Assembly: GCA_013285735.1 (NCBI GenBank)
Contig: JABDGZ010000002.1
Location: 5,952 to 69,951, forward strand
Direction: 5' to 3'
DNA: 64,000 bases
Source: Candidatus Omnitrophota bacterium
GTDB taxonomy: Bacteria > Omnitrophota > Gorgyraeia > Zapsychrales > Fredricksoniimonadaceae
Shown: positions 23,106 to 45,965 of the stretch, in pieces
Position numbering within the stretch: position 1 is the first letter of the stretch
Layout of the letters: each line of letters starts with the position of its first letter
Notes under the pieces: model-generated
What the model was told of the DNA's origin: nothing
Seen by the model: the letters and a program-made list of their open reading frames with translations, nothing else
Databases searched by the model: none
Program-made: the position numbers and the translations under genes

Positions 23106-24713
23106 TTAGGGAACGCCTAACTTCTTTAAATTGATTCGGGCCTGAACAAATGATGGGTCAACTTGCAGAGCTCGCTCAAGGTTCAGATAGGCATCTTTCT
23201 TGTCGCCCAAGTGAAGATACACAAAAGCCATATTATTATACAAAGACGCATCTTTGCCATCAATAGCCGTCGCCTGCCTGTACTTATCCAAACTCCATTT
23301 CCACTGCCCCATCGCAGCTTCATTCTGGGCCCAATCGAATAAAATTTCCTTTTCAAATCCCAAGTAAAACTTCTCCGCTGTTACGTTGCTTGCCCGCTTC
23401 GCATAAGCAGACATGATTGTAAAAGCTTTATTAAAATGCCCCTCTGCCAAATCAGGACGTCCATTAAAATAATATGCCTTAGCCAAAAGTAAATGCCCAC
23501 GCCCAAAATGTGGTTCATACTGCAGCATACGTTCAAATAAGGCTGTTTCACTTCTCCAAGAGGTATTTTGATACCAGGTTAATGAAAGACAGCTAACCAC
23601 GATAAGGCCTAATAGCAATTCTCTAAAATGCTTTAAAAAATGATCTGCCACAAAGAGTACTACGATCAAAATACCTACGATGGGTAAATATAAAAAATGC
23701 TCAGCCGTAAGGATGAATGAATACTCATTGATCAAAGGGGCAATGTTTAGCACTGGAAGAAGTGCAGCCAGAAACCAGCCAAATCCCAAAATCATCGTTG
23801 GCCGTGCTTGAGGCCATCGTTTAAATATATAAAAAATACCTGCGATAGATAGCAAAGCCAAAATCCAGGAAATACCATTAGATTGCAAAATATCTGTGCT
23901 GCGATAATAATGTAAATCATACGGTAAAAATATCAGACGCAAATCCATCCCTAGACATCGGGGTATCGCGGCCAAGCGTAAATACAATTCACCGGGAGAC
24001 GCCATGATATCTTTTAACAATGATGCACCGGTGACAAAATGCCGTAGCCATAATAGAACACCGGCGACTAAAACCCAACAAAACCACGAAGGAAAGTTTA
24101 AAGAGATTGCTTCGTCGGGCTTCGCCCTCCTCGCAATGACACTTTTATAACAATCAATAACTATCACCAAAGGCACAAACATCACAGCTTGTTCCTTGCT
24201 AAGACAAGCTATCACAAAAAATAGTAAACTGACTGCATACCATTTCCTTAAATAGGCATTTAAAGCCAATAAGACTCCTAAGGCCATCCAAAGATTTGAG
24301 ATTCCTGCAATACAAGCGACCGCCTCGGTCTGCACCGGATGGATCAAAAACAACAAAGACACGGCCCAAGCTATACGCTCGGGCAAATCTAATTTTAACA
24401 GCAGACAAAAAAGCAAAAGCCCATTAATAATATGGACGATGATATTGAATAAATGAAATCCAAAAGGATGGGGGCCAAAGAAATGATATTCTAAACGGTA
24501 AATAATTTCTAATACCGGACGATAATACGTATTGATACCATCTGAGGCTGCGGGTAGTTTAAACGCTTCCGTCCAATGATTTAATTCGGTAATGTGCGGA
24601 TTTTTGAGGATGAAAACGACATCATCGTGAACAAAAGGATGCCGGATAGCATTAAAAAAGGCAAGTAATCCAAAAAAAATTAACGCTAAATAACCTGCCT
24701 TGCGAAACATCAA
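23106..24713 (-). CDS. Polytopic membrane protein with C-terminal TPR repeats (TMTC/PMT-like glycosyltransferase-C fold, putative)
   Basis: About 10 TM segments; YYRPVLEIIYRLEYHFFG near the N-terminus; TPR-like C-terminal ~150 aa. Carries an in-frame hairpin repeat (VIARRAKPDEAIS). Confidence 0.5.
   Translation of the reverse strand: MMFRKAGYLALIFFGLLAFFNAIRHPFVHDDVVFILKNPHITELNHWTEAFKLPAASDGINTYYRPVLEIIYRLEYHFFGPHPFGFHLFNIIVHIINGLLLFCLLLKLDLPERIAWAVSLLFLIHPVQTEAVACIAGISNLWMALGVLLALNAYLRKWYAVSLLFFVIACLSKEQAVMFVPLVIVIDCYKSVIARRAKPDEAISLNFPSWFCWVLVAGVLLWLRHFVTGASLLKDIMASPGELYLRLAAIPRCLGMDLRLIFLPYDLHYYRSTDILQSNGISWILALLSIAGIFYIFKRWPQARPTMILGFGWFLAALLPVLNIAPLINEYSFILTAEHFLYLPIVGILIVVLFVADHFLKHFRELLLGLIVVSCLSLTWYQNTSWRSETALFERMLQYEPHFGRGHLLLAKAYYFNGRPDLAEGHFNKAFTIMSAYAKRASNVTAEKFYLGFEKEILFDWAQNEAAMGQWKWSLDKYRQATAIDGKDASLYNNMAFVYLHLGDKKDAYLNLERALQVDPSFVQARINLKKLGVP
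24103..24140. repeat. Hairpin repeat family 2 (GAGATTGCTTCG...GCAATGAC type), in frame in the TPR membrane protein
   Basis: gagattgcttcgtcgggcttcgccctcctcgcaatgac; encodes VIARRAKPDEAIS. Confidence 0.75.
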
Positions 24714-25063
24714 CCAGCCAAGTCTTTCTTAAAATTTGCGGCAAAAATCTTAATCCGTTCAAAATACCCGTCGATATCGGAAGCTACCTCTGCCATACCA
24801 TCGGTTTTACCTTCTTTAGCCAGCATCTCCAATTTAAGGCAAGCCGCATGCAAAGGCTTGGCAGAAATATTTCCCGAAGAGCCTTTCATTGAATGGGCAA
24901 TTTCCTTAACCTTGGCGATATCATTAGCCGCAATGGCTTCCCCCAGGGCTTTTCTTTTAACTATAAAATCTTCCTCATAAATATCAAAAAGTTCGGCGAG
25001 CAATTCTTTATCATCTTGCACACGTTCTAAAACATCTTTTAAATCAATAATTTCTTCGCTCAT
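24710..25063 (-). CDS. Histidine phosphotransfer (Hpt) protein
   Basis: HSMKGSSGNISA phosphorylatable-His motif; ~115-aa helical protein. Confidence 0.8.
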   Translation of the reverse strand: MSEEIIDLKDVLERVQDDKELLAELFDIYEEDFIVKRKALGEAIAANDIAKVKEIAHSMKGSSGNISAKPLHAACLKLEMLAKEGKTDGMAEVASDIDGYFERIKIFAANFKKDLAG

Positions 25064-25076
25064 AATAATCTCTCCG

Positions 25077-27062
25077 TTAATTTTTTAAACGCTGGGTAAC
25101 AAGACTGACAATTTCTTCATAAAGTAAATTACGGTCAATAGGCTTGGATACATAGCCGTCCATCCCTGATGCCAGATACCGTTCCCTGTCCCCGGCCATG
25201 GCATTGGCTGTCATCGCAATAACAGGGACATGAAGGCCTGTTTGCTTTTCTTCCCGACGGATAACTTGGGTGGCTTCAATACCGCTAAGAAGCGGCATAT
25301 TATCATCCATCAAAATCACATCAAAGGTCTGGTCATTTAAAACATTCAAAACTTCCTGGCCATTGTTAGCGACCGTCACCTTCCAGCCTAATTTCTCCAA
25401 AATCCTGATGGCAATACGTTGATTGACCGTATTATCCTCTGCTAGCAGGATACGCAAATTTTGTAACTCTGACGGCACTGCAGATTGGGTAGATTCTGCC
25501 CCAGCTTTCTGTTCCACTGTTGCATTCCCAAACGCATCCGGGTGATAACCAAAAATGATAACAAAACGAAAAGTACTCCCTGTCCCTTCTATACTCTCAA
25601 CCTCAATAGACCCACGCATCATCTCAACGATTTTCTTACAAATAGCCAATCCCAGGCCAGTACCCCCATAACGCCGGGCAGTGGTATTATGCGCGTCGGT
25701 AAACACATCAAAAATATGAGGTAAATTCTTAGACGATATACCAATGCCGCTATCAACAATCTCAAACACCAATTCACAATCTTTTTTCGTCAGTGATTTC
25801 ATTTTGACATTAACCAAGACCTTACCCTTATGGGTGAATTTAATCGCGTTATTGACCAAGTTAACAATAACCTGACGCAGCCTGACAGGATCTCCTGTCA
25901 ATAGCCGCGGAATTTCCGGATCAATAGTCCAGACAACATCCACACCCTTATTACGCGCCAGAACCATCAAGCCCTTGCACACATTTTTGACAACGTCCGG
26001 AACATTAATCTCTATTTCTTCGATCACAACCTTCCCTGCCTGGGCACGGGAAAGATCCAGAATATCATTGATCAGGCTCAATAAATTATCCGCTGCGTCT
26101 TTGGCTACTTTTAAATTATCTTTTTGTTCCTCATTCAATGGCGTATCCAGCGTCAAGTCAATCATGCCGATAATAGCATTCATCGGCGTACGTACCTCGT
26201 GCGACATCTTGGCCAAAAAAACACTTTTAGCGCTATTAGCTTCTTCCGCAGCCAATTTAGCCTGCAAGATCAATTCATTCGCATGTTTGCGTTCGGTGAT
26301 GTCCTGAAGCATCCCCACCGAACCAACAATCTTGCCCCTATCATCTTTAAGGATATTGACCGACAAATCCACGTCTATCACAGAACCGTCTTTGCGAATG
26401 ACCTTGGTCTCCATATGATGCATAAACCCGCTTTGACGGATGTTTAAAGAACGGATCATCTTCCATTCTTCGGGAGGATACAAGCTGCTCACTTGCCTGC
26501 ACAGGAGATCTTGAGGCCCCATTCCCAAAAGTTTCTGGGCAAAACTGTTCCAGGAAACAATCTGCTCCTTCTCATCGGTCATGGTGATCGCTGCGGCGGA
26601 GTTATCTAAAATGATACGTAATTTATTTTCTGACTCACGCATCTGATGCTGGGCCAATTTCTCTCGTGTGATATCATTCAAAATACCAATGGACCCGATC
26701 ACCTGTCCCTTGGTGTCTTTCAAAACAGATATAGAAGCGCTGACATCAAGCAAAGAACCGTCTTTGCAAAGGACCTGGGTATCGATATTAGAAAGCATGC
26801 CTTTATGACGTATGTTCATAGAACGTATACGCTTCCACTCTTTAGGTTGGTATAACGAACTAACAGGCTTATTAAACAAGTCTGCCTTGCTCATGCCTAG
26901 CATCTTCTCGGCCATAGGGTTCCAGGCGACGATACGTTCCTGGCTGTCGGTGACCGTGATTGCGGAAGGAGAATGGTCAAAAACAATCTTAAAAAGCTGC
27001 CTAGACTCAGCATTATCCTTTTGTAATTGTTCTTCGACATTAATTTCTTTTGGTTTGATCAT
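25077..27062 (-). CDS. Hybrid sensor histidine kinase (2x PAS, HisKA, HATPase_c, receiver)
   Basis: Two PAS-like repeats (ITVTDSQERIVAWNPMAEKMLG / ITMTDEKEQIVSWNSFAQKLLG), H-box SHEVRTPMNAIIGM, N-box NLVNNAIKFT, DSGIGI, GGTGLGLAI, and a C-terminal receiver (ILLAEDN...ILMDDNMPLLSG...SKP). Confidence 0.9.
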   Translation of the reverse strand: MIKPKEINVEEQLQKDNAESRQLFKIVFDHSPSAITVTDSQERIVAWNPMAEKMLGMSKADLFNKPVSSLYQPKEWKRIRSMNIRHKGMLSNIDTQVLCKDGSLLDVSASISVLKDTKGQVIGSIGILNDITREKLAQHQMRESENKLRIILDNSAAAITMTDEKEQIVSWNSFAQKLLGMGPQDLLCRQVSSLYPPEEWKMIRSLNIRQSGFMHHMETKVIRKDGSVIDVDLSVNILKDDRGKIVGSVGMLQDITERKHANELILQAKLAAEEANSAKSVFLAKMSHEVRTPMNAIIGMIDLTLDTPLNEEQKDNLKVAKDAADNLLSLINDILDLSRAQAGKVVIEEIEINVPDVVKNVCKGLMVLARNKGVDVVWTIDPEIPRLLTGDPVRLRQVIVNLVNNAIKFTHKGKVLVNVKMKSLTKKDCELVFEIVDSGIGISSKNLPHIFDVFTDAHNTTARRYGGTGLGLAICKKIVEMMRGSIEVESIEGTGSTFRFVIIFGYHPDAFGNATVEQKAGAESTQSAVPSELQNLRILLAEDNTVNQRIAIRILEKLGWKVTVANNGQEVLNVLNDQTFDVILMDDNMPLLSGIEATQVIRREEKQTGLHVPVIAMTANAMAGDRERYLASGMDGYVSKPIDRNLLYEEIVSLVTQRLKN

Positions 27063-27358
27063 ATTTTATTTTTAGTACATTGGATATTTTTAAGGATCGC
27101 AACCAGATTAAGCGCTCCCACAACGATGGCCAAAATGGTCAGGCAAATTTTGAACATATGGACCCATCCCGCGTGAAAATCTTCGGGCTTTAGGGCATGC
27201 AAGATTAACGACACCAAAAGAACAATAACAAGGATAGAAAAACCGCAGATCAGAAAAATAAAAAAAGAAAAAAGGCAAGCAATCAAAATAACATAAAGAT
27301 TGTAGTTAAATAAAGAACCCTTAGACATTTTACTGGCAGCAATTCCAATACGTAGCAT
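27059..27358 (-). CDS. Small membrane protein, unknown function
   Basis: Three hydrophobic helices; ATGA-type overlap with the kinase start. Confidence 0.4.
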   Translation of the reverse strand: MLRIGIAASKMSKGSLFNYNLYVILIACLFSFFIFLICGFSILVIVLLVSLILHALKPEDFHAGWVHMFKICLTILAIVVGALNLVAILKNIQCTKNKI

Positions 27359-27408
27359 AGTATTATGTTACCACTGAAAGTTTAACGCGCCAAATACAGA
27401 TTAAAATT

Positions 27409-28047
27409 CTATCGTTCGAATTTAACCACGTTCTGCCACCAGGCATGACTATCCCAGGAAAGCGCCTGTTGCCATAGTTTTCGGGCAGTGGCCGTCTTTA
27501 AATAGTCCGGGGCGCGTTTAAAAAACGTCCGTGCCACGGGATAGCCGTTATCTACATATTCTTTAGCCTGGATCAGACACTCTAAAATATCCGCATCACG
27601 GGCTACAATGCTTTCGACAGATTTCTGTCCCTCATAATCCCCGCGCATCGCTTGTAAGGATGCTTTGACTTTTTTTTCTAAAGAAGCAATCTGGTCGGCA
27701 AAAGCTTTTTTTTCAGCTTCACGGAAATCAATATAATAGTGGCCCATTTTATGCAGATCATTAATACGTGCTTCATGAATATCATTAAAAAGCGTCATGG
27801 TCACGACTTTAAACGGATCAACCCCTTCACAATGGGCAATGTAATAGCCAATCACCGCACAGCGAAAGCAATGCTCCGCCACTGTCTCGGGATTTTCAAT
27901 ACCAGCCACCCACCAGCCGCTGCGCTTAACGCGTTTCAAAAGCCCGGCCTCGGCAAAAAAATTAAGTGCCGCAACCTGAGGGTTAATTTTCTTAGTTTTT
28001 TTGACGGACGATTTCATAACACAACATGGCGGTCGCATGAGCGACAT
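27409..28047 (-). CDS. HD-domain phosphohydrolase (YfbR-like, putative)
   Basis: VAEHCFRCAVIGYYIA ... LFNDIHEARINDL ... ARDADILE pattern. The annotated start overlaps rlmB, so the true start is probably internal. Confidence 0.55.
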   Translation of the reverse strand: MSLMRPPCCVMKSSVKKTKKINPQVAALNFFAEAGLLKRVKRSGWWVAGIENPETVAEHCFRCAVIGYYIAHCEGVDPFKVVTMTLFNDIHEARINDLHKMGHYYIDFREAEKKAFADQIASLEKKVKASLQAMRGDYEGQKSVESIVARDADILECLIQAKEYVDNGYPVARTFFKRAPDYLKTATARKLWQQALSWDSHAWWQNVVKFER

Positions 28048-28708
28048 TAAGCGACATCCGCTGATTTTTCATAGGGACCATCACCTTTGCATCCAATTTT
28101 TTAAGGTTAATCTCCCGAACACCTTTTTCCTCAGAACCCATCACCAACCCTAGTGGAAACTGTAATGTGACTTCTGTAAGACTTTTGGCATCTTCAACAA
28201 CAGTGCCCACCATCCAAAAGCCCATCTTCTTCGCTTTTTCAATGGCGTTACCCAAATTAGAAACCTTGGCCACCGATAAATAATTCTCCCCGCCGCAGGC
28301 AACCCGTAAAACAGATTCGGTCACACTCACTGATTCTGTTGTCGGAAGGACAATATCAAAAATACCCAAAGCCCCACAAGTACGGATTATACCACCTAAG
28401 TTTTGAGGGTCATTCAGATTATCCAAAAAAACCGGCGTGCGTTTTTTTTCCAAAGCACTCTGCAGTAAATCATCTATTGGCACATACGCAAAATCTTCGA
28501 TATCAGCCATGATGCCCTGAGTATTCAAATTTTGAGCCAATCGCTGAATCTTAGAATGCGGTACCGTTTGCACACTAATGCCCCACTGATTACATTTTTT
28601 GCGGATATACATCAAATCCACATGGTCTTCATCGATCATGAGCCGGCGGATCGATTTAGGATTAGATTTCAAACGTTCAATAACTGGATTCTTACCGTAT
28701 AGTTTCAT
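27992..28708 (-). CDS. rlmB: SpoU/TrmH-family 23S rRNA 2'-O-methyltransferase
   Basis: N-terminal substrate-binding domain LYGKNPVIERL. SpoU motifs NLGGIIRTCGALG, LVMGSEEKGV and SLNVAHATAMLCYE. Confidence 0.8.
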   Translation of the reverse strand: MKLYGKNPVIERLKSNPKSIRRLMIDEDHVDLMYIRKKCNQWGISVQTVPHSKIQRLAQNLNTQGIMADIEDFAYVPIDDLLQSALEKKRTPVFLDNLNDPQNLGGIIRTCGALGIFDIVLPTTESVSVTESVLRVACGGENYLSVAKVSNLGNAIEKAKKMGFWMVGTVVEDAKSLTEVTLQFPLGLVMGSEEKGVREINLKKLDAKVMVPMKNQRMSLNVAHATAMLCYEIVRQKN

Positions 28709-29922: not shown

Positions 29923-29942
29923 CGTTAACCCCCTAATCCTCT

Positions 29943-31255: not shown

Positions 31256-31263
31256 AGGTCTTT

Positions 31264-32823: not shown

Positions 32824-34116
32824 ATGATCTATTTTTTAGGTATCCTTATTAGTTTTGCGGCAGGCTTCCTTTTAATACGCCTGTTAACAGATGGCCGCCT
32901 TAATTTTATCCTGCATATTTTATTAGCCTTGGCACTGGGCTTAGGGATAAATGGTACTGCAGCTTTTTATACGCATATCCTTTTAAATCAACCCAATCGA
33001 TTTATTCCTATCGGACTCGTATTGTTTCTTATAACCTACCTGTTTTTTTTAAATAATAAAAATATATCCTTCCCTAAGTTTTCATTTACGCAAGCCCATG
33101 GATGGGGATTGCTGACCTTAGGTGTTTTGACTATTCCATTAGCTGTCAGTGGTCTTCATTACCCTCTGGGTGGATGGGATGCGTGGTCCTGCTGGAGCCT
33201 GAAGGCAAAATTTATTTTTTTAGGACAGGAAAACTGGAAGGATATGCTTGATCCCGGTCTTTGGCGCAGTAACACGCATTATCCGCTTCTTTGGCCTCTG
33301 ATCAATGTATGGTTTTGGGATTTAGGTGGTCATTTTGACCAAACAGTACCCATGCTTAACAGTATTATTTTTGCCTTGTTAACCGCCGGGATATTACTTT
33401 TCGGACTTTTGGAATTGACTGGCATGCTGCTGCCTTCCCTATTCGCCGCTGTCATTGTGATAGCCTTACCTTTTGGTGTAACCTTATACACCAGCCAATA
33501 TAGCGATAGCCTGTTGGGCCTTTATCTACTATCAGCCTTCATCTGTTTGCTCTTGGCAGAAAAAAATAAGCTGCCTAAACTCAAAATATTAAGCATGGTA
33601 TTTTTAGGACTGATGAGCTTTACTAAAAATGAAGGATTGATTGTTTCTGGCATTGCGGTGTTACTTATTCTTTGGCACGAACGCTCTCACAAAAAAGAAT
33701 TAAAAAATCTTGTTCTAGCTTTTGCAATCGCTCTTTTGCCTACCATTATCTTTACACTTTTCATGGCCCCTAAAAATGAAGCTTTTATCAATGGATTAAC
33801 ATCGACGGACAAGCCCACCGATTGGTCACGTTTAATGATCATTTTAGTTTATCCTTGGTTTGAATTTATCTCTGGTAAATGGAACTGTTTTTGGCTGCTG
33901 GTCGCTGGTGGAATTTTACTGTCGGGAAAGAAATTATGGCAGTCCACCCTTGGAGTGATTGGCTTTAGTCTAATCCTATATCTGGGAGTGGTGATGGCTT
34001 ATTACGATGTTAATACTTTTTTTGAAATCAGCTGGTGGCTGTCAACAACCCTCTCGCGTATTCTCTTCGCACTAGTACCGACCATCGCCTTATGGATCGG
34101 CGTTGCTTTATTGTAA
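32824..34116 (+). CDS. Polytopic membrane protein (possible GT-C type glycosyltransferase)
   Basis: About 12 TM segments. Lies next to divergently transcribed sugar-modification genes. No diagnostic motif recognised. Confidence 0.35.
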   Translation: MIYFLGILISFAAGFLLIRLLTDGRLNFILHILLALALGLGINGTAAFYTHILLNQPNRFIPIGLVLFLITYLFFLNNKNISFPKFSFTQAHGWGLLTLGVLTIPLAVSGLHYPLGGWDAWSCWSLKAKFIFLGQENWKDMLDPGLWRSNTHYPLLWPLINVWFWDLGGHFDQTVPMLNSIIFALLTAGILLFGLLELTGMLLPSLFAAVIVIALPFGVTLYTSQYSDSLLGLYLLSAFICLLLAEKNKLPKLKILSMVFLGLMSFTKNEGLIVSGIAVLLILWHERSHKKELKNLVLAFAIALLPTIIFTLFMAPKNEAFINGLTSTDKPTDWSRLMIILVYPWFEFISGKWNCFWLLVAGGILLSGKKLWQSTLGVIGFSLILYLGVVMAYYDVNTFFEISWWLSTTLSRILFALVPTIALWIGVALL

Positions 34117-37089
34117 TCTTTGCCGCAACTCAATTAAAATGGGAAGATTTACAACGGACTCGATTTCAGTAATTTCAGGGATAAAACCCTGGATACGGCT
34201 TAGTTGGGCCATGTCTTGCTGAGATAAGGGCAACGGTACACCACGCCCGTTGCGTTTGATTTGTAAATTCAAATTTGCGGAATTAAAATCAATACCACCA
34301 TTCAAAGCTTGGTCTGAAGGTGGTTTGAGATTCGTTCGCATTGGTAATTTCGGTGGTTGGCCAGCATGCGGCTTGATATTTTGAGTTAAATAATATACGA
34401 TCCATGCCGCGACAACTACCAATACCAATGCTATCACTTTGGGCAGCCTATCCTCACGGTAGTCTACGCTCCCATCTTTATCTGTCATTATCGCTGTTGC
34501 TATCGTTGCAGCAGCTATTGCGTTTGGGGAACCTATATCTTTAAATCTTCTAAGCCACATCCTTGCCAAGTTAATTGCTTTAAGATTATCCTCACCCTTA
34601 CTTATCATTGTCACAGCTGCTTCTGTTGCAGCAGTCGCTTCTGTGTTGTCCAATTCACTAAATTCCAAAGACAGGTCTTTTACCGTTCTGATTGCTTTAC
34701 TTTCATTAATCTTTGTACCATCACTCGCCACTGTATCTATCAACATCGCTGCCATCATCACTTCAAAAGTAGTAAGCTGCTTCTATTCTGAAAACCAAAT
34801 TACCATTTCTTTTGCTTTACTCTCAACCATCCCTTTACTTATCATTATCGCCATGATGATAGCTCCAACTTGACCAGCTTTTACAATTAATCTTTTTGCC
34901 AATAAAATTGCATCCTTCTCCTCCATACCACCACTGATCAGTCTCCCTGCCGTTATTGTTGCAAAAGGCGTCTCTTCTCTCCTCCAATGATAAAACTCCG
35001 ATATTAATCGTTCTGCCATGATTCCAGCTTTAAGCTGTCCCCTTCTTTTATTCACTAATCTAGCAGCTGTTGTCGTCCCCAAAAATATTATGTCTGAATT
35101 ATCTTTTCCAATCTTTCTAAACGTGTCAACTAAGTATTCTGCCGTGGATATTGCTTTATTACTATTCATCGCAGCGTCATAACTAACTTGTGCTTTATCT
35201 GTCAGTATCGCTGCTGCCATTGTAGCGGCTGCTGTTGCATTGGGAGAACCTAAACGACTAAACCTTTTAAGCCAGCCCCTTGCCATCCCAATAGCTTCCC
35301 TTGGGTCTATCCCCTTAGCTATCATTCTCGCTGTTGCTTCTGTCCCGGCAATTGCTTCTAGCTTACCCAAATCACTAAATTCTGACGTCAGGTCTCTTGA
35401 CGTTCTAATGGCTATGGCCTCACTTATCTTGGCACCTATCATAATAGATGCTGTCATCAGTTCTTGAGTGGAAAGCTGCTTTTGTTCCCATAACCAAGCT
35501 GTCATTTCTTTTGCTTCATTTTCTTTCATCCCTTGACTTATCATTGTCGCCATTAATATGGCACCTATATCACCATATTCTGAAATTAAATTCTTTGTCA
35601 TTGGGATTGCGTTCTTTTCCTCTATCCCTCCTCTTATCAATCTCCCTGCTGTTATCGTTGCAACTGGCGTATCTTTTTTGCTCCATCTGAAAAATTCCCG
35701 AAACAGTCGTTCTGTCAAATCAACAGCTTCAACTTGCCCTCTTTTTTCATTGATCAATCCCGCCGCTGTGTTTGTTCCCAAAAATAATATTTCAAGGTCA
35801 TTATATTTTCTGAACATTGCGACCAAATTCTCTGCTGTAGAATTTGCCACAATACTATTCATCGCCGCGTCAGCTTCTTTGTCTGTTTCAAGCGAAACAG
35901 CTGCCCTATCTATATCTCCTACCAAAGCAGAACGGTCAATGCTATGGGATATAGTAAGAGACATATCCTTATTATTTACGATTTCTAATATTCCTCTACC
36001 ATAACCATGCATTCCATTGTCAATACCGCTATATTTAACTGCCCCACCGGAAAAATATTTTCTTGGAATTGCTTCCTTGGTATATTTGTCCACATCTTCT
36101 TTGATGTAGTTAAACACCCCTTTCTTAAAAGCCTTAAGATATTGTTGGTAGATTTGATGTTGAGATTGCTTCGCTTCGCTCGCAATGACACCAGGATCAT
36201 TACTTGTAAAACCAGTAACTCCCTGCACCTTGGCTTGGTTGGCATAAACCTTTCCTAATAATGATTCCTTAAGAGCGTGTTTATACCACGTGGCTAAAAT
36301 CATGCCGCTATAAATCTGGCGTAGGTTAGCAAAATTCTTACCTTCATTGACTTCGCGCTCGAGTTCGGGAAGGACGATTTCACGGATGACTTGGGAGCCT
36401 ATGGAATGGATGTTATTAGTAGTTCCAGAATGTTTTTGTAAAGAAAGATAGTCTTCTTCCAGCATCACTTTAAGATGATTGCGCAAGACATATACCGTAT
36501 TACCGCTTTCATAAACTGCAGCTTCGTCAGGGATGATCCAGACTTTATTAAATGTGTTGACGGGAATATTGGTGACGCCATATTCTTTAAATGCTCGCTC
36601 ATAGACTCTATTCCAGAATTTTTTGCCTAAATTATCTTCGGGATAAATCAAACTCGAGGTGATTTGCTTTAAGATGTAGTCCTGTGCGAGAAGGTCTCGA
36701 CCCATTTCAGTCTTGCCAAAATCATCCTTAATAATACGGTTCTTTTCATACGGAGAGAGATTGACCCACTGGTCATTATCAGGAACAGTCAAAGAGGCTA
36801 AAAAATATTTTACTAATTTAGTATATTGCTCTTGTTTCTGAATTTCATTTAACGGCTCATCCCCGCGATGAATGAGAAAATCAAATTGTAGGGCATTGTC
36901 AGGATGGATGACCATTCCTACCAAATGTGCAGGTGTATATGTTGAACTTAAATGCACCAATATTCCGGGAGCAGGTAAGTGAAATTCACCTTCAACGCTA
37001 TACATTGGTTCTGCCTTGGCAGTTGGATTAGGGCCAATGGTGTTGACAAAAAATGCCAATAGGATAATAAAAGACACACAGCTACGCAT
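34108..37089 (-). pseudogene. Head-cargo-tail paralog B, interrupted by one in-frame TAG at 34783-34785 (ORFs 34783-37089 and 34108-34761 are in the same frame)
   Basis: 37089 and 34761 are both multiples of 3, so the two ORFs share a frame. Reading through gives ...KEMVIWFSE*KQLTTFEVMMAAML..., which continues the internal ~230-aa repeat; compare repeat 1 ...KEMTAWLWEQKQLSTQELMTASIM... Signal peptide, head domain, 2 repeats, a TM (VIALVLVVVAAWIVYYL), and a GGIDFN tail. Confidence 0.8.
36162..36189. repeat. Hairpin repeat family 2, in frame in the paralog B head domain
   Basis: gagattgcttcgcttcgctcgcaatgac; encodes VIASEAKQSQ. It is absent at the aligned position of paralogs A and C. Confidence 0.85.
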
Positions 37090-37096
37090 AGTGAAA

Positions 37097-37117: not shown

Positions 37118-37140
37118 TAAACAAGGAAGGGGGTATTGCG

Positions 37141-37617: not shown

Positions 37618-37618
37618 A

Positions 37619-37849: not shown

Positions 37850-37876
37850 TTGTTTGTCCTTTCTTTAGGTTAAAAT

Positions 37877-38173: not shown

Positions 38174-38250
38174 GCGCGCTCCTAAGTATTAAATAATATA
38201 TAGTTTATAGAAAGTATTTTATACCTCAACTTTAGACTTTTGGCAAGTGC

Positions 38251-38544: not shown

Positions 38545-38556
38545 GCAATACTCCTC

Positions 38557-39153: not shown

Positions 39154-39226
39154 CTTTTTACACCCCCACCTGAGCGCCTGCCTATCGGCAGGCTTCTCCC
39201 CCGTCAAAGGGGGAATGTTACCATGT

Positions 39227-39955: not shown

Positions 39956-40301
39956 CGTCCCGACGCTCAAAATAACGAAATTTATTTTTATCAAATTTCG
40001 TATAAATGCGATCATACGGTTTCGTGGCTATTTTCTCCACAAAGACCTGCACGCCTTTGTATTCAGCAACTTGATAAACTTCTGAATCTTGCAAGACTTC
40101 GTAATCATTGACCGGATACCATTTAGACCCGTCAAAATCAATCGGGTCGCCATCACGTATCCATCCAGCCTCAATAACAGGTGCCGGATAACTTTGTATT
40201 TGGCCGTCATTATTGCCGGAATTGACAGACGCGCATCCGCCCAAAAATCCTGTAAGCATAAACCACAGGCTAAACCCCAGGAGCCTTTGCTTAGTTTTCA
40301 T
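39948..40301 (-). CDS. Small lipoprotein, unknown function
   Basis: Lipobox LTGFLGGC/AS. Inserted between the MlaE-like and MlaF-like genes, with an 8-nt overlap with mlaF. Confidence 0.55.
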   Translation of the reverse strand: MKTKQRLLGFSLWFMLTGFLGGCASVNSGNNDGQIQSYPAPVIEAGWIRDGDPIDFDGSKWYPVNDYEVLQDSEVYQVAEYKGVQVFVEKIATKPYDRIYTKFDKNKFRYFERRDDD

Positions 40302-40304
40302 ACC

Positions 40305-41096
40305 TTACCCCCAGAATGTTAAAATAATTTTGGTCAACACTGTATTAGATACAATCACCGCGATATAGGAATACGCTACAGCCTTGGTGGTAAAACGACC
40401 GACACCGGTGGCCCCGCCCTGAGTAAAAAATCCCTGATAACAGCAAATCCATCCAACAATAATAGCAAAAAAGAAAACTTTAACAAAACCGCTAAAGAAA
40501 TCCACGAAACCTACCGCGTCCATGGTCTGATGGATATAAAAAGCACCCGGCATATGCGCCTGGGTTATCGCGATCATATACCCGCCCAGCATCCCCAACA
40601 CTTCCGAAATGATCACCAGCGCTGGCAATACCAGCACACATGCCAAAAAACGCGGCACCACCAAAAACTCGATAGGGTTGACTCCCATCACACGGGTCGC
40701 CTGAATTTGGTCTTGCGTATTCATGGTACCTAATTCCGCGGTTATCCCTGCCCCTGCCTTACCGGAAAAAATCAACGCTGTAAATACAGGGCTCATCTCA
40801 CGCAACAAAGAAAGAACTACAAGACGGGCAATAAATTCTTTGGCCCCAAAACGCTGCAAGGTAGTAAAACCCTGTAAACCCAGCACTGTGCCCGTCGCAA
40901 ATGATGTCAACATCACGATCACAATCGACTGCACGCCCTGCTCGTATACCTGGTCTAAAACATCGTTCCACCGGACACGGCCGCGAAAGATCAATGATAT
41001 GATGTCCCCCAAAAAGAAAATGGCTTCACCAATACTACGCAGGTGTCCGTAAAAATTCTTTAGCAAACGAGGGACCATTATTTTTCTTTCAGCCAA
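40305..41096 (-). CDS. mlaE: ABC transporter permease, MlaE-like
   Basis: ~260 aa, 5-6 TM segments, and the C-terminal ICCYQGFFTQGGATGVGRFTTKAV signature. Confidence 0.8.
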   Translation of the reverse strand: MAERKIMVPRLLKNFYGHLRSIGEAIFFLGDIISLIFRGRVRWNDVLDQVYEQGVQSIVIVMLTSFATGTVLGLQGFTTLQRFGAKEFIARLVVLSLLREMSPVFTALIFSGKAGAGITAELGTMNTQDQIQATRVMGVNPIEFLVVPRFLACVLVLPALVIISEVLGMLGGYMIAITQAHMPGAFYIHQTMDAVGFVDFFSGFVKVFFFAIIVGWICCYQGFFTQGGATGVGRFTTKAVAYSYIAVIVSNTVLTKIILTFWG

Positions 41097-41578
41097 AAAG
41101 ACCTAAACTCTTTATTGATCTTTTCCTGATGGCTTAATGAAATATATTTTCCACCAGTGTCCTGACGCACATGAGACTCTTTGGATTTAGCTGTAAATGC
41201 CTCAACACTCATGATACGGGCACCCAATGAACGCGCGTAAAGAAAAATATCCTTATCATTGGAAACGACCACGCAATTCTTTTGATCCGCGTCCTCTTCG
41301 ACCATACGCTTGATCTTATCGTCCGCAGAACATCCATCTGAAAAAATCACCCGTATATCCCCGTAAGGGGTGGAGCCAAAATAATCTGGATGACCGTCAA
41401 AGACCACTGTCACCGGGTTATTCACGCTTCCCTGGGGACGCGTGTTTGCGATCCATTTCAAAAATCCCAAGCGCCCGTCTTCAAGAGGGAGATCTCTGAA
41501 GGCTGCCATCTGCTTGAGGATGTTGTACCCGTCCAGAAGATAATGTAGTGACATATAATAGCCCGCCCAAAAGCCCAT
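41078..41578 (-). CDS. NYN/YacP-like (Rae1-type) nuclease-domain protein
   Basis: YLLDGYNIL ... VTVVFDG ... VIFS...ADDKIKRMVE ... VVVSNDKDI. The start is probably internal (MSLHY). Confidence 0.55.
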   Translation of the reverse strand: MGFWAGYYMSLHYLLDGYNILKQMAAFRDLPLEDGRLGFLKWIANTRPQGSVNNPVTVVFDGHPDYFGSTPYGDIRVIFSDGCSADDKIKRMVEEDADQKNCVVVSNDKDIFLYARSLGARIMSVEAFTAKSKESHVRQDTGGKYISLSHQEKINKEFRSFWLKEK

Positions 41579-42473
41579 TAATGATGGTAAATGCAGAGTT
41601 AATAAGACTTAAACCCCCCGCCATTTCCTTGGATACCCCCACCAAAGGAAGCAGATAAACCCAGCCGATTTCCCGGAAACCTAATCCTCCGATGGAAGGC
41701 AGGGAAGTCACGACACAAACAATGGGCGAAAAAATAATAAAATACACCAGTGATATATTTTGATGCATTCCTTTAGCTGTCAGATAAAATTCTATCGCCA
41801 AAATGATCTGTGCCCCGATAGAAATCATGATTGCTTCCCAACCATTTTTCTGACGGCCTTTCAAAAGAACGATATCATAATGCAATTTCATTAAACTTTC
41901 TTTGACCTTGGGCCATGACGCAAAGGCCTTACAAGCAAATGAAAAAATCCGATGACTAAAAAGAGTGATCACAATGATTCCAGAAACAATGGTCATGGCC
42001 GCAATCGCTACAATGACCAATCTATTCTCGATGATGCCGTGGCCAAAAATAAAAGCCACTGCCGCTAAAATAACTATTCCTGCAAATCCGCTTAAACGAT
42101 CCAGCACAATGGAGGCAAATACCTTAGGCCTATGGCCGGTTTCTTTGGCCAATCCCATACCCCTGATCAAATCACTGCCAATTGTCGAAATCGGTGCCAG
42201 GTTCCAGAAAAGTCCTATAAAATACCACCAGGCACAGGTAGTTCGCCGGGCCTTCAGCCCCACTGCCTTCATCAAAATCCGCCACCGCAAAATAATTAAA
42301 AAATTAATCAAAAAGAAAACAATCGCAGCAGCACTCATATAGCGCATATCTGATCCCTTGATCGCCTGCCATATGTGCTTGTAATCAATGGTGACAAAAA
42401 CCCATGCCAGCAAAACAAAACTTAAAAAGCAAGGAAGTACAATAGAAATAATATTCTTCAATTTTGGGTCCAT
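41481..42473 (-). CDS. Flippase-like / LPG-synthase-TM (UPF0104) family membrane protein
   Basis: 8 TM segments; GGLGFREIG motif near the C-terminus. Confidence 0.5.
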   Translation of the reverse strand: MDPKLKNIISIVLPCFLSFVLLAWVFVTIDYKHIWQAIKGSDMRYMSAAAIVFFLINFLIILRWRILMKAVGLKARRTTCAWWYFIGLFWNLAPISTIGSDLIRGMGLAKETGHRPKVFASIVLDRLSGFAGIVILAAVAFIFGHGIIENRLVIVAIAAMTIVSGIIVITLFSHRIFSFACKAFASWPKVKESLMKLHYDIVLLKGRQKNGWEAIMISIGAQIILAIEFYLTAKGMHQNISLVYFIIFSPIVCVVTSLPSIGGLGFREIGWVYLLPLVGVSKEMAGGLSLINSAFTIINGLLGGLLYVTTLSSGRVQHPQADGSLQRSPS

Positions 42474-43384
42474 CAGGACTTAACTCCTAAGGCAGCCTGG
42501 TAACCCTGTTCTGCAATATAGGAACTACGGACCAAAGGCCCGCTCTCTACATACACAAAACCCATTGCTAATCCTTTTTGACGGTACTTTTCAAATTCTT
42601 CAGGGTCAAGAAAACGTTCGACCGGCAGGTGACGTTTGCGTTGAGTCGGCGCTAAATATTGGCCAATGGTCAAAATCTGGCAGCCAGCCTCAAGAAGCTC
42701 ATTCATCACCTCAACAATTTCCTCGTCAGTCTCACCAATACCGACCATTAAAGATGATTTTATAAAGCTATGGGTATTAAGTTCACGAAAACGGCGCAGC
42801 ACCTTCAAAGAACGGTCATGCAAAGCCTGCGGACGAATATAGGGTGCAAGACGCCTGACTGTTTCTATATTATGGCTGATCACCTCGGGTGCCGCATCAC
42901 TCAATATTTTCAATGACGCTTCCTTGGCAGAAAAATCCGGGATCAACACTTCAATTTTAACGTCCGGGGTAAGGTGTCGGATAGCCTCGATCGTTTTGGC
43001 AAACTGGAGAGCTCCCTCATCTTCAATATCATCACGGGCGACTGAAGTTACCACCACATAACGTAAACCTAATTGTTGAACAGCCAACGCCACATTCTGA
43101 GGCTCTTCCATATCAATCAAATCCGGACGTCCGGCCGGAACAGAACAAAAGCGGCAGGCGCGTGTACAAGTGCCCCCTAAAATCATAAAGGTTGCCACAC
43201 CCTCTTTCCAGCAAGTACCCATATTCGGGCAATTGGCAGATTCGCAAACCGTATGCAGGCGGCTGCCACGAAAAAGTTCTTTCATGCTCCGGATCTTATT
43301 CATATCTGGAATTTCCTGCTTAAACCAGCTCGGCAGCTTTACCAGACCTGAATCAAATTTTTCTTTTGTAATCATCGTCGTCAC
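42473..43384 (-). CDS. lipA: Lipoyl synthase
   Basis: CESANCPNMGTCW auxiliary cluster and the CTRACRFCSV radical-SAM motif. Confidence 0.95.
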   Translation of the reverse strand: MTTMITKEKFDSGLVKLPSWFKQEIPDMNKIRSMKELFRGSRLHTVCESANCPNMGTCWKEGVATFMILGGTCTRACRFCSVPAGRPDLIDMEEPQNVALAVQQLGLRYVVVTSVARDDIEDEGALQFAKTIEAIRHLTPDVKIEVLIPDFSAKEASLKILSDAAPEVISHNIETVRRLAPYIRPQALHDRSLKVLRRFRELNTHSFIKSSLMVGIGETDEEIVEVMNELLEAGCQILTIGQYLAPTQRKRHLPVERFLDPEEFEKYRQKGLAMGFVYVESGPLVRSSYIAEQGYQAALGVKS

Positions 43385-43898
43385 CCAGCACGTTGCCGGC
43401 GTAGGTTCCTTTTTTCATCTGTGCTACAATCCGCGTACGATCGCGAGGAGATAAATAATCAAGGATTAATTTCCCTTGTAAATGATCATATTCATGTTGA
43501 AACACCTTGGCCACGAGTCCATTTAACTGGGCCCGCACCTGGTGATTTTCCTGATCGGTAAATTCCACCCAAATGGTCTTGGCGCGTTTGACATCGACCA
43601 ACACGCGAGGAATGCTCAAGCACCCTTCTTCCATAACCTCGCCGCCTGCGGTCCTGATAATCTTGGGATTAATAGCAGCGAAAATCTCTTTCCCGGTATC
43701 CACCACAAAAATCTGTTCATTGATACCTATTTGAGGTGCCGCTAAGCCAACCCCTCTGCAGGCGACCATGGTCTCGAACATCGCTGCGATCAGCATGCGC
43801 TCAACCGGACCGACTTCCTTGATTGCTTTGGATTTTGTTTCCAGGCATGGGTCACCATAAAGCCTGATTTTTAAGGGACCAAACATCATATAAACCAC
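43353..43898 (-). CDS. def: Peptide deformylase
   Basis: GVGLAAPQIG, EGCLS and QHEYDHL motifs. Confidence 0.95.
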   Translation of the reverse strand: MVYMMFGPLKIRLYGDPCLETKSKAIKEVGPVERMLIAAMFETMVACRGVGLAAPQIGINEQIFVVDTGKEIFAAINPKIIRTAGGEVMEEGCLSIPRVLVDVKRAKTIWVEFTDQENHQVRAQLNGLVAKVFQHEYDHLQGKLILDYLSPRDRTRIVAQMKKGTYAGNVLGDDDDYKRKI

Positions 43899-43900
43899 AC

Positions 43901-43925
43901 GTCATTCCCGCGAAAGCGGGAATCC
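43901..43925. repeat. Hairpin repeat family 1
   Basis: gtcattcccgcgaaagcgggaatcc; lies between panD and def. Confidence 0.85.
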
Positions 43926-43930
43926 ATTTA

Positions 43931-44284
43931 TTAAATCTTTTTTATTTTGTTCTTTGGATCAAGATAAACGATTTTAGGTTGAAGACGACGGGCTTCTGCG
44001 ACTTCTAACAAGCCATAACTTAAAATAATCAAACGGTCTCCCACATATCCATGACGGGCTGCAGGGCCGTTTAGGCAGATAACACCAGAAGCAGGTTCGC
44101 CTGCGATCACATAGGTTTCTAAACGGTTACCGGTATTTTCATTAAGCACATGCACTTTTTCACCAGGAATCATACCAACTGCCTTGAGGATATCCGAATC
44201 AATGGTGATACTACCCTCATATTTCAATTCAGCCTGGGTGATGGTCGCATGTCCTATCTTTGATTTTAAAACTTCAATAAGCAT
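43931..44284 (-). CDS. panD: Aspartate 1-decarboxylase
   Basis: MLIEVLKSKIGHATITQAELKYEGSITID (Gly-Ser self-cleavage site). Start moved from 44347 to the ATG 44282-44284 because the longer ORF begins inside a hairpin repeat (MDSRFPLRG...). Confidence 0.9.
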   Translation of the reverse strand: MLIEVLKSKIGHATITQAELKYEGSITIDSDILKAVGMIPGEKVHVLNENTGNRLETYVIAGEPASGVICLNGPAARHGYVGDRLIILSYGLLEVAEARRLQPKIVYLDPKNKIKKI

Positions 44285-44296
44285 ATTTATACTATT

Positions 44297-44345
44297 GTCA
44301 TTCCCGCGACTTCGAAGAAGCCCTCGAAGAGGAAAGCGGGAATCC
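44297..44345. repeat. Hairpin repeat family 1, long variant with nested palindrome
   Basis: gtcattcccgcgacttcgaagaagccctcgaagaggaaagcgggaatcc; lies between trxA and panD. Confidence 0.8.
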
Positions 44346-44355
44346 ACAATTCCTT

Positions 44356-44676
44356 TTATAAATGCGTGTTTAATTTAGCTAATAACTTATCTTTTGGCAT
44401 CGCACCAACTATTTGGTCAACAGGCTGTCCGCCTTTGAAGATCAGCAGCGTCGGTATAGACATCACATTAAACTTACCCGCCAACTCCGGCACCTCATCC
44501 ACGTTGACCTTGGTCATTTTCATCTTACCCTGTAATTCCGTGGATAATTGGTCAATAATAGGAGCTATCATCTTGCAAGGGCCGCACCATTCAGCCCAAA
44601 AATCGACCAAAACCGGAAGTTGCGATTTCACGACTTCGGCTTCAAAATTCTTTTCATCCAAATGTAAAGCGCCCAT
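44356..44676 (-). CDS. trxA: Thioredoxin
   Basis: WAEWCGPCK active site; ~106 aa. Confidence 0.95.
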   Translation of the reverse strand: MGALHLDEKNFEAEVVKSQLPVLVDFWAEWCGPCKMIAPIIDQLSTELQGKMKMTKVNVDEVPELAGKFNVMSIPTLLIFKGGQPVDQIVGAMPKDKLLAKLNTHL

Positions 44677-44698
44677 AATCTAATCCTTTCCTAAGCAA

Positions 44699-44728
44699 TA
44701 AAAAATCCCAATGCCTGTTCTTTGGGAT
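44699..44728 (-). terminator. Candidate intrinsic terminator downstream of the DUF819-like gene
   Basis: Read on the minus strand: 7-bp stem ATCCCAA/TTGGGAT, 10-nt loop, followed by TTTTTTAT. Confidence 0.5.
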
Positions 44729-44795
44729 ATTGTATGTTTATTATATATTTGTTGTGAATATATATCAAATACTATCGTTTTGATATTCTATCTCC

Positions 44796-45965
44796 CTAGT
44801 GAGCGAATAACCGGCATATTTGTCCTGTAATTATACCATTATAGGCACCCAAGGTGTGGCCCAAAATGGCTAAAAGCAGTCCTACGGATGCAAAGCCTGG
44901 CTGATAAACTTCCGCGACTACCGGTGCAGAAACTAATCCTGCAAGATTAGACAAAGAAGCAGTGGCGACTAAAAATAATGGTGCGCGGATCAGGCGGGCA
45001 GTCACCAGCAATATCATTACATGAATTAAAATCACCACCACCCCTGCCGCGAGTAAAATCCCCACCTGAGAAGCATTACTTAAACTGGCACGGGCACCGA
45101 TGCTCGTTAGCACAAAATATAAAATCCATTTGCCAAATTTGTTAGCACCTGTGTGCGGGATACGGCTTATCGGTGTCATAGACAAAATAATGGCCGTGGT
45201 GGTGACCAAAATAACGGTCCAGGCGTAAGGTGTAAGAATATTTTTTCCTGTTGGTAAATAAATAGATACGGCTTTAGCCGCCAAGCCGATACTAAAAGCT
45301 AACACCAAAATAATAATAGCATTACCTATGTTAAGAGATTGCTTCGCCTCGCCCGCAATTGTAGAAACTCTACTGCTTAAATCATCCAGGATCCGCCGAT
45401 CAGCGCGGTTCCATTTGTCAAAATCTATTTGCCGTGCGGCTAAAGAAATTAAAATACCCACCCATACATACGGTAAAATCGTATCCACGATGACCATCGG
45501 CAAAAAAACAGCGTCAGGTGTATTCAAAGCTTCTTTGACTGCAACCATATTGGCACTTCCCCCGGTCCAGGATGCAGACAAAGCCCCAAACCCTCCCCAA
45601 AATTGCGGGCCAACCAAAGGTTTAAAAATAATAAAACTAATGACCATGCCAAGCATGATGCCGAATGACCCGGCAAAAAACATCACCAATGCCGCAGGCC
45701 CTAGGCGGGAAATGGCCTTAAAATCCACATTAAGCAAGAGCAAAAAAAGCGCCGGCGGTAAAAGGCATTTGGTTATCTCTTGAAATAAGGAACTTTTAGC
45801 ATCAATAAGCCCACAGGTGGATAAAACCATGGGCAAGAAATAAATCCAGAACATCGAGGGCAGGAATTTAAATAAAAATTTGGTACGCGGGTTTCCCGCT
45901 AAAAACAAAATAGTAAATTCGACAGCTAAGAGAACAAGGATTAGAAGTAAATGATGATGGATCAT
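44796..45965 (-). CDS. DUF819-like polytopic membrane protein (putative transporter)
   Basis: About 12 TM segments. Its position downstream of the dipeptide epimerase is a recurrent context as I recall it. Carries an in-frame hairpin repeat (TIAGEAKQSLNIG). Ends in TAG. Confidence 0.5.
   Translation of the reverse strand: MIHHHLLLILVLLAVEFTILFLAGNPRTKFLFKFLPSMFWIYFLPMVLSTCGLIDAKSSLFQEITKCLLPPALFLLLLNVDFKAISRLGPAALVMFFAGSFGIMLGMVISFIIFKPLVGPQFWGGFGALSASWTGGSANMVAVKEALNTPDAVFLPMVIVDTILPYVWVGILISLAARQIDFDKWNRADRRILDDLSSRVSTIAGEAKQSLNIGNAIIILVLAFSIGLAAKAVSIYLPTGKNILTPYAWTVILVTTTAIILSMTPISRIPHTGANKFGKWILYFVLTSIGARASLSNASQVGILLAAGVVVILIHVMILLVTARLIRAPLFLVATASLSNLAGLVSAPVVAEVYQPGFASVGLLLAILGHTLGAYNGIITGQICRLFAH
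45334..45362. repeat. Hairpin repeat family 2 (diverged), in frame in the DUF819-like gene
   Basis: agagattgcttcgcctcgcccgcaattgt; encodes TIAGEAKQSL. Confidence 0.6.

Follow-up and report, generated by a model that had tools for sequence, protein, structure and literature searches.

A Widespread Hairpin Repeat Inside Three Genes of an Omnitrophota Bacterium: A Probable Variant of the Ssn-Related Motifs

The stretch of DNA considered here, 64 kb of contig JABDGZ010000002.1 from a Candidatus Omnitrophota bacterium (assembly GCA_013285735.1; in the following the window), carries three copies of a short hairpin repeat, family 2, each of them inside a protein-coding gene. Family 2 is probably a variant of the Ssn-related motifs (SRMs), and its three solo copies in the window probably entered hydrophilic loops of the encoded proteins, or replaced part of such loops, and persisted there by tolerance; we put the probability of this reading at about 75%. 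SRMs are hairpin repeats flanking ssnA genes, which encode single-domain GIY-YIG proteins of 94 amino acids (PMC11893778), and their prototype is the Neisseria repeat NTS, CGTCATTCCCGCGMAVGCGGGAATCYRG (Chenal et al., 2025, Nat Commun, PMC11893778). The reading is built on the observed anatomy of family 2 and its distribution, on its association with a nuclease gene, on the homology of this nuclease to NTS-flanked ones, on the comparison of the insertions with orthologs, and on covariation in the inner stem of the hairpin. An earlier description of the window, made from its letters alone (the sequence-only reading), had noticed the three copies and had taken them for a repeat that is found only in coding sequence and always in one frame.

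Three Copies in the Window

On the plus strand of the window the 12-mer GAGATTGCTTCG is found three times in exact form, at positions 24103, 36162, and 45335; in 128 kb, as we calculate, any one 12-mer should turn up about 0.008 times. The presence of three repeat copies inside minus-strand genes is thus confirmed, with a similarity at the DNA level well above chance, copy 3 starting at 45335 rather than at 45334 as given before. When both arms were searched for with at most two mismatches per arm, copies 1 and 2 were recovered (0.05 matches expected from Markov-shuffled sequence), and a fuzzy two-arm search of the window revealed no additional degenerate copies of family 2. Copies 1 and 2 have in common an identical left arm of 11 nucleotides, GTCATTGCGAG, and an identical right arm of 12 nucleotides, CGAAGCAATCTC; the left arm of copy 3 has four mismatches and lacks the GTC. 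The C after GCAAT is present in 3/3 copies. Copy 2 is of the short type, which is the most frequent family-2 variant across bacteria.

All three copies lie on the sense strand of minus-strand open reading frames (ORFs; Table 1) and are translated as VIARRAKPDEAIS (copy 1), VIASEAKQSQ (copy 2), and TIAGEAKQSL (copy 3). Their 5' arm is read in the same frame in 3/3 cases. Copy 1 has 10 nt more than the others, and for this reason its 3' arm falls into another frame and is read as EAIS, not as KQS. That the three sites have nothing in common except a peptide motif, by chance or convergence and without any inserted DNA, has next to no probability. The peptides are indeed similar (VIA.EAKQS) and the copy in the DUF819 gene (copy 3) came without a change in length, but identical 12-mers lie in three unrelated genes, copies 1 and 2 agree in both arms, the same DNA is found between genes in many phyla, and copy 1 is missing from all 20 orthologs.

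Design and Distribution of the Element

A scan of reference genomes with the pattern ATTGCGRG-N(3-24)-GAAGCAATCTC found at least 156 copies of family 2 on at least 120 contigs of other genomes. The phyla among the matches listed include Chloroflexota, Patescibacteria, Bacteroidota, Omnitrophota, Pseudomonadota, Planctomycetota, Bacillota, and Atribacterota. The element has the design Y-GTC / ATTGC / GAG / variable inner stem-loop / CGAA / GCAAT / C-TC; on the GTC strand its ends are GTCATTGCGAG...GAAGCAATCTC, and its candidate ssDNA (single-stranded DNA) substrate is GTCATTGCGAG...GAAGCAATC. Among the matches listed, GTC, which lay outside the search pattern, precedes the palindrome ATTGCGAG in 150/156 copies, and a pyrimidine stands ahead of GTC in 134/156; the C after GCAAT belonged to the search pattern for copies outside the window.

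The outer stem of 5 bp (ATTGC/GCAAT) is invariant, and the centre is variable in length and sequence with the stem retained. The dinucleotides at the junction of the inner stem covary, being GC/GC, CC/GG, GG/CC, or tandem GA/GA, and among the copies of 32 nt each of the four inner pairs is found changed on both sides. In this length class there are 21 compensatory cells versus 4.6 in shuffles, a value reached in none of 500 shuffles, and every slid register scores lower. In this family 2 agrees with the SRMs, which are inverted repeats of 20–50 nt able to form a hairpin.

Among the matches listed, 15/156 copies are surrounded by an ORF that stays open to both sides for 60 codons or more, and 8/156 by one that does so for 100 codons or more. 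With so few of the listed copies in long ORFs (8–15 of 156), family 2 must be regarded as mainly intergenic. Restriction to coding sequence therefore describes the window, with 3/3 copies, and not the family at large. The sequence-only reading had itself named a mostly intergenic distribution with random frames as speaking against a coding-only element, and this is close to what the at least 120 contigs display: copies mostly between genes and frames that are mixed. The candidate intragenic copies in other phyla are read in mixed frames, 11 of them sense and 4 antisense among the matches listed. Convergent +/− pairs of family-2 copies are common between genes in these phyla. Arrays of 3–5 copies within 1–2 kb, regularly spaced by about 50–170 nt in the manner of bacterial interspersed mosaic elements (BIMEs), were seen in L005, L043, L056, and L113 (Chloroflexus, Caldatribacterium, and others). 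A full-text literature search with strings from the element returned unrelated primers only and no paper with the family-2 sequence.

Link to a GIY-YIG Nuclease

A gene for a GIY-YIG protein (PF01541) of about 96 amino acids is present in 3 of the 120 listed family-2 loci, and in one of these, L019, it is bracketed by family-2 copies. With these three proteins 80 metagenomic loci were fetched, whose encoded relatives are 50–72% identical. Strict family-2 copies were found in 61/80 of these loci, 154 copies in all in 238 kb. Within 300 nt upstream of the nuclease gene there is a copy in 49/80 loci, within 300 nt downstream in 47/80, and on both sides in 35/80. In the usual layout the copy upstream is direct, at a distance of a few to about 100 nt, and the one downstream is inverted, its GAG overlapping the TGA stop codon (...TGAGATTGCTTCG...CGCAATGAC). 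Because the flanking copies are inverted, the outer ends of the unit are GTC...GAC. Among these ssn loci (L122–L201) L127 may serve as an example: at 2501–2830 the stop overlaps the downstream inverted hairpin (TGA-GATTGCTTCG...); extra degenerate copies are often found on both sides. In its arrangement the hairpin-ssn-hairpin unit resembles a minimal transposon with GTC...GAC termini.

Three GIY-YIG genes that adjoin NTS copies on viral contigs match the hidden Markov model (HMM) of the family-2-linked nuclease at 1e-30, and one of them, in L301, has NTS on both sides. The family-2-linked and the NTS-adjacent proteins are 43% identical by BLASTP (E = 5e-25), and the spacing of two tyrosines and a glutamate in the nuclease agrees with the reported Y6/Y17/E64. 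The closest match of the nuclease in the PDB is the UPF0213 protein 1zg2 (E = 3.6e-4); no close relative was found in the PDB or in NCBIfam. From within the Omnitrophota comes contig L050, where two sister variants flank an ssn gene, ATTCTGAG...GAAGAAT and ATCCTGAG...GAAGGAT. In them the outer stem is altered in a compensatory way (ATTCT/AGAAT, ATCCT/AGGAT), and GAG and CGAA are kept. The association of family 2 with the flanks of these genes, taken together with the homology of the nuclease to NTS-flanked genes, leads to the conclusion that family 2 is probably a variant of the SRMs to which a separate clade of nucleases belongs.

The exact NTS motif was also seen on at least 120 viral or proviral contigs of IMG/VR (L207–L326), L223 having at least 13 copies; some of these contigs carry NTS-flanked GIY-YIG genes.

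An analogy between the NTS system and repetitive extragenic palindromic (REP) elements or BIMEs with their REP-associated tyrosine transposase (RAYT) was drawn by Chenal et al. (PMC11893778). The likeness extends to family 2: REPs are short hairpins recognised as ssDNA, with the enzyme gene between inverted copies and with both solo and clustered copies, and family 2 is likewise a dispersed short palindrome that clusters in L005, L043, and L056 and is arranged like inverted transposon ends around a gene. It is nevertheless hardly probable that family 2 is itself a REP/BIME-type element mobilised by a RAYT (a Y1 transposase similar to that of IS200/IS605), or a miniature inverted-repeat transposable element (MITE) derived from a classical insertion sequence (IS). 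The gene between the inverted copies encodes a 96-amino-acid GIY-YIG nuclease and not a Y1 (HUH) transposase, REPs are extragenic, and around the solo copies compared with empty sites no clear structure of terminal inverted repeats plus target-site duplication was seen.

Insertion and Replacement in the Host Genes

Copy 1 lies in a gene for a membrane protein with C-terminal TPR repeats, and its 12 residues VIARRAKPDEAI are missing from 20/20 aligned orthologs (62–77% identical). At the DNA level it is an exact in-frame insertion of 36 nt (24105–24140), equal to GTCATT...GCAATC, so that its interpretation as an inserted element has held up in the ortholog comparison. Copy 2 lies in paralog B of an Omnitrophota-specific protein family, which in this loop has 36 nt more than paralog A and 30 nt more than paralog C. 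The loop comprises 51–52 residues in 36 of the 42 homologs from which it could be extracted, and 63 in paralog B.

Copy 3 is different. The DUF819 loop in which it lies is as long as in 20 orthologs, which means that copy 3 is not a net insertion: compared with an ortholog, about 30 nt have been substituted rather than added, and its GCG AAG CAA TCT aligns in register with the native AAA AAG CAG CCC of an empty ortholog. The proposal of the sequence-only reading that the element had replaced or expanded a loop is therefore correct for paralog B as far as expansion is concerned (+36 nt versus paralog A), and the DUF819 loop is not expanded. Its placement of the other two copies in loops between membrane segments agrees with a simple hydropathy scan, by which copies 1 and 3 sit between hydrophobic segments. 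The native DUF819 loop, KKQPVHPG, was also considered as a decayed ancient copy; this was rejected, the loop having the same length in distant orthologs without any KQ.

Three in-frame insertions in the window add 36 nt each, namely family-2 copies 1 and 2 (24105–24140 and 36154–36217) and a family-1 copy in paralog A (56752–56787); the core elements of these insertions are 36, 26, and 24 nt long, respectively. Paralogs A, B, and C have a common N-terminal domain of about 370 residues without a Pfam match, and one of the paralogs has 3019 residues. At E ≤ 1e-30 there are 1399 homologs of this domain, nearly all of them from Omnitrophota as far as a source names them. An internal tandem duplication of about 700 nt with 70–75% identity is found toward the C-terminus of paralog B (34476–35872, in the region of paralog B and the ORF at 34108–34761). 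In paralog A, which is free of the element at the site homologous to the paralog B copy (36162–36173), a native GAAGCAATCTA 9 nt downstream of this site agrees with the 3' arm of the element in 10/11 bases; the likeness is forced in part by the conserved NExIY motif.

How the Copies May Have Arisen

In the SRM reading, family-2 hairpins belong to the oriented hairpins that flank small single-domain GIY-YIG nucleases of the Ssn family and are thought to be recognised by them as ssDNA. The full unit is [hairpin>]-ssn-[<hairpin], with the GTC ends outward, and solo hairpins, scattered in many phyla and mostly between genes, would be derived from it, being spread by Ssn or by the ssn unit. Of NTS, SsnA binds a single strand only, as ssDNA, and its cut falls a few bases upstream; mutagenesis has revealed that cleavage depends on the three bases ahead of the palindrome and binding on the C behind it (PMC11893778). 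By analogy, the GTC-bearing strand of family 2, once single-stranded, would be bound by its cognate Ssn, with a cut immediately 5' of GTC. All required bases (T-GTC...AATC) would then be retained in copies 1 and 2, and copy 3, with ACA in place of GTC, could at most be bound and would no longer be cleavable. The copies in the window would have persisted because their net changes in length (+36, +36, and 0 nt) are divisible by three, because the frame is free of stops, because the peptide VIA[RS]xEAxKQS is hydrophilic and benign, and because the loops are tolerant.

It should be noted, however, that several findings weigh against this reading. The published degenerate pattern for SRMs, HGTCWYN(0-2)YYVSBRHN(0-5)WNVSBRGN(0-2)RNCYNB, is matched by 0/3 family-2 copies of the window and by 0/341 others; this pattern is an operational search tool, not a biological definition. 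No ssn gene was found in the 64-kb window, as searched with a GIY-YIG motif expression and by tblastn with approximate YhbQ-like queries, or within about 6 kb past its left end. The assignment of the family-2-linked nuclease to the Ssn family (cd10448) is a probable one, made through its homology to NTS-flanked genes. No clear target-site duplication was found at copy 1 or at the family-1 copy of paralog A, the empty sites being taken from orthologs and paralogs only about 75% identical. The length-neutral copy 3 is a replacement that simple insertion leaves unexplained. Finally, nearest-neighbour folding of the three window copies is weak, with z near 0 (z = −4.35 for family 1), and the case for structure therefore rests on the comparison between copies and not on thermodynamics.

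The weak predicted stability also bears on a role at the RNA level, for example that of a terminator, of a hairpin in the mRNA, or of a site to which a regulator binds. For such a role it could be said that transcription reads each of the three copies in the sense direction and that the convergent +/− intergenic pairs elsewhere resemble bidirectional terminators. But no T-run follows the copies, a search of the window against Rfam gave no matching family, and the RNA version of NTS is not bound by SsnA (PMC11893778). Moreover, the insertions are lineage-specific and missing in close orthologs, and the tight link is to a gene for a DNA nuclease. An RNA-level role is therefore very unlikely.

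Reading Frame and Orientation

The sequence-only reading attributed the constant frame of a coding-specific repeat to stop codons or disruptive residues in the other frames. When the family-2 consensus was translated in all six frames, five were found free of stops, the sole stop being in an antisense frame (CAA TGA C). With five of six frames open, stop codons cannot be what keeps the frame constant.

A scan of 360 fetched Omnitrophota homologs for the peptide signatures, in all frames, found 24 intragenic occurrences, 24/24 in sense orientation. The 5' arm of family 2 is read as VIA[RS] in 11 of these, as SLRG in 3, and as HCEE in 1, and the 3' arm as KQS in 12, as EAIS in 2, and as RSNL in 1; the family-1 occurrences read VIPAKAGI in 9/9 cases. 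This does not mean that all 24 are independent. Some go back to inheritance, such as VIPAKAGIHNKNN, which is shared by paralog A, P0250, P0253, and P0276. Other frames are in use as well. P0135, a member of the family of host gene 1 with the element at a different site, reads it as HCEERSAAMRRSNL (HCEERS...RRSNL), and SLRG... is found in P0003, P0281, and P0316. In a related Omnitrophota genome assembled from a metagenome (GCA_015233675.1; L204, 1–1191, minus strand) a membrane protein contains the in-frame convergent pair VSLRAKRNNL-FK-EIASSLKNVPRND, of which one copy is antisense inside the coding sequence.

A coding-specific repeat held in one frame by selection against the others is thus decidedly unlikely. 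It would agree with the three intragenic, sense copies of the window, all in the same 5' frame, and with the 24 sense occurrences, most of which read VIA.../...KQS; but it does not go together with a stop in only one of six frames, with the other frames and the antisense copy just mentioned, or with the finding that at least 90% of the listed copies from other genomes lie outside long ORFs, the typical place being the flanks of ssn genes. Of the constant frame itself there remains the common frame of the 5' arm in the window; the EAIS arm of copy 1, P0135, the homologs with SLRG, and the antisense copy in L204 depart from a single frame. A strong bias toward sense orientation and toward VIA.../KQS remains in Omnitrophota; it is weaker than had been supposed and its cause is not stop codons.

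Certain loops are occupied repeatedly. The DUF819 loop carries an element in the protein of the window, in P0064 (confirmed at the DNA level), and in P0003, and the N-terminal domain of paralogs A, B, and C has three such sites, at which family 1, family 2, or a third variant is found in different homologs. The simplest explanation of this recurrence is that hydrophilic loops are tolerant. Together with the bias and the length-neutral copy 3, the hotspot loops form a residue that goes beyond the favoured explanation.

The bias might instead be mechanistic, which seems possible though doubtful: elements would enter only one DNA strand, such as the lagging-strand template when it is exposed as ssDNA (as in IS200/IS605), and since genes are co-oriented with replication, the copies would come to lie on the sense strand; short homology to the 3' arm might in addition guide insertion or patching. 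In agreement with this, the GC skew is negative along the whole plus strand and nearly all genes, the three hosts included, are on the minus strand; as a consequence, the orientations of transcription and of replication are confounded in the window. SsnA, too, acts on ssDNA and on one strand only (PMC11893778). As to the guiding homology, the AAG CAA of the element in DUF819 is in register with native AAG CAG, two other orthologs have different variants there, and paralog A has its native GAAGCAATCTA beside the homologous site. Against a strand-specific entry stand the intergenic family-1 copies of the same window, which occur in both orientations, and the candidate intragenic copies of other phyla, 4 of 15 of which are antisense among the matches listed. 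The register match was found at only one of the three window sites compared with empty ortholog or paralog DNA, which is thin evidence kept as a lead only, and the NExIY motif largely accounts for the look-alike in paralog A.

A more far-reaching form of this idea, which we consider unlikely, is that in Omnitrophota several Ssn-type hairpin variants are more than debris that is tolerated. A strand-specific process working on ssDNA would write them again and again into the same loops of proteins and could in doing so replace native sequence of roughly the same length, possibly anchored on short homology to the 3' arm (AAGCA).

Comparison With Known Systems

The closest system to family 2 is that of NTS/SRM and Ssn. 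Both have an oriented hairpin of 20–50 nt with GTC 5' and C 3' of the palindrome, inverted copies on both sides of a gene for a single-domain GIY-YIG protein of about 95 residues ("NTS-ssnA-NTS"), and solo copies over many phyla. Flank association, orientation, and hairpin are all found in family 2, and it is only the published search pattern that does not recognise it. NTS differs in having one 8-bp stem (ATTCCCGC/GCGGGAAT), whereas family 2 has a 5-bp outer stem, purine-rich internal loops (GAG/CGAA), and a covarying inner stem-loop. They also differ in location: NTS is rarely intragenic (2% in N. meningitidis; PMC11893778), whereas family 2 is found in frame inside genes in 3/3 copies of the window and in many more Omnitrophota homologs.

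In-frame intragenic repeats are known from the Rickettsia palindromic elements (reviewed in PMC10969869), which likewise are palindromic, lie in frame in genes of unrelated proteins, give rise to a tolerated peptide, and recur across lineages. These, however, are about 100–150 bp long and occur in Rickettsia only, and no nuclease is known to go with them, whereas family 2 is 26–38 nt long, is found throughout the bacteria, lies mostly between genes in other lineages, and has its link to ssn genes.

The Neisseria repeat dRS3 (ATTCCC-N8-GGGAAT) is the core of family 1 of the window; the palindrome of family 2 is a different one. We know of no role of family 2 in phage integration, unlike dRS3.

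Other Hairpins in the Window

Family 1 of the window, GTCATTCCCGCGAAAGCGGGAATC, has six copies, of which three match the published SRM pattern versus 0.14 expected; judged from this sequence, it is the canonical Neisseria NTS/SRM. Families 1 and 2 share the flanks GTCATT...AATC, flank homologous GIY-YIG genes, and have both given rise to in-frame insertions, so that the kinship of the two families and the intragenic colonisation by both, as proposed in the sequence-only reading, are supported. In the family-1 copy between panD and the thioredoxin gene the 4-nt loop is replaced by about 24 nt (GTCATTCCCGCG-ACTTCGAAGAAGCCCTCGAAGAGGAA-AGCGGGAATC), which has the appearance of a nested or expanded hairpin. 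A third variant of the same GTC-hairpin-C design is also found in frame, as SSPNASVGDP, in the homologs P0249 and P0272. The coordinates of all elements and of the host genes are given in Table 1.

Table 1. Hairpin elements, host genes, and related features of the window.
Feature	Position	Strand	Description
Family-2 copy 1, long type	24103..24140	-	GTCATTGCGAG-GA-GGGC-GAA-GCCC-GACGAAGCAATC-TC; sense strand GTCATTGCGAGGAGGGCGAAGCCCGACGAAGCAATCTC
Family-2 copy 2, short type	36162..36189	-	Sense strand GTCATTGCGAGCGAAGCGAAGCAATCTC
Family-2 copy 3, degenerate	45335..45362	-	Sense strand ACAATTGCGGGCGAGGCGAAGCAATCTC; ACA where GTC is expected
Host gene 1, membrane protein with C-terminal TPR repeats	23106..24713	-	Named O-mannosyl-transferase or TPR protein in some sources; element = residues 191-202
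Host gene 2, paralog B of the Omnitrophota-specific protein family	34783..37089	-	Paralogs A at 48436-57495 and C at 60959-63832
Host gene 3, DUF819 membrane protein	44796..45965	-	Element = residues 202-210, central hydrophilic loop
Native look-alike of the 3' arm in paralog A	56522..56533	-	TGAAGCAATCTA; encodes N-E-A-I-Y
Family-1 (NTS-type) copy inside paralog A	56764..56787	-	GTCATTCCCGCGAAAGCGGGAATC, read as VIPAKAGI; paralog A +36 nt versus B and C here
Family-1 copy	43901..43924	+	Intergenic, def/panD; fits the published SRM pattern
Family-1 copy, enlarged loop	44297..44344	+	Intergenic, panD/thioredoxin gene
Family-1 copy	59350..59378	-	Intergenic, between two divergent MFS transporter genes
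Family-1 copy, imperfect stem	11130..11154	-	Intergenic
Family-1 copy, ATC instead of GTC	11530..11553	+	Directly upstream of the start of a cupredoxin gene
Third variant, same GTC-hairpin-C design	57993..58021	-	GTCATCCCCGAATGTTTTAATCGGGGATC; intergenic, MFS transporter gene/paralog A

Implications

Family 2 is probably a type of SRM, very widespread and apparently uncatalogued, that stands out by its build of two stems and, in Omnitrophota, by its unusual in-frame occupancy of genes. Many spurious "hypothetical proteins" containing strings such as LRFARND or SLRGAKRRSNL presumably stem from this repeat, which we take to be a common artefact of annotation.

It was not until 2025 that the Ssn nucleases and their motifs were described, starting from the NTS of Neisseria, and the published pattern catches NTS-like motifs only. 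With GTCATTGCGAG...GAAGCAATCTC as the motif that flanks the genes of a large Ssn-type sister clade, the catalogue of candidate pairs of enzyme and site, which Chenal et al. proposed as ssDNA tools, is extended.

For the Omnitrophota the finding means that SRMs can become parts of proteins, and that they can do so recurrently in the same loops, a parallel to the situation in Rickettsia, now with a candidate enzyme. If repeated writing into the same loops were true, VIARSEATKQS or VIPAKAGI would be peptide cassettes and the process would amount to a diversification of loops in membrane and surface proteins. In any case, the spread of intragenic palindromes and the bias in their frame and orientation become approachable by experiment.

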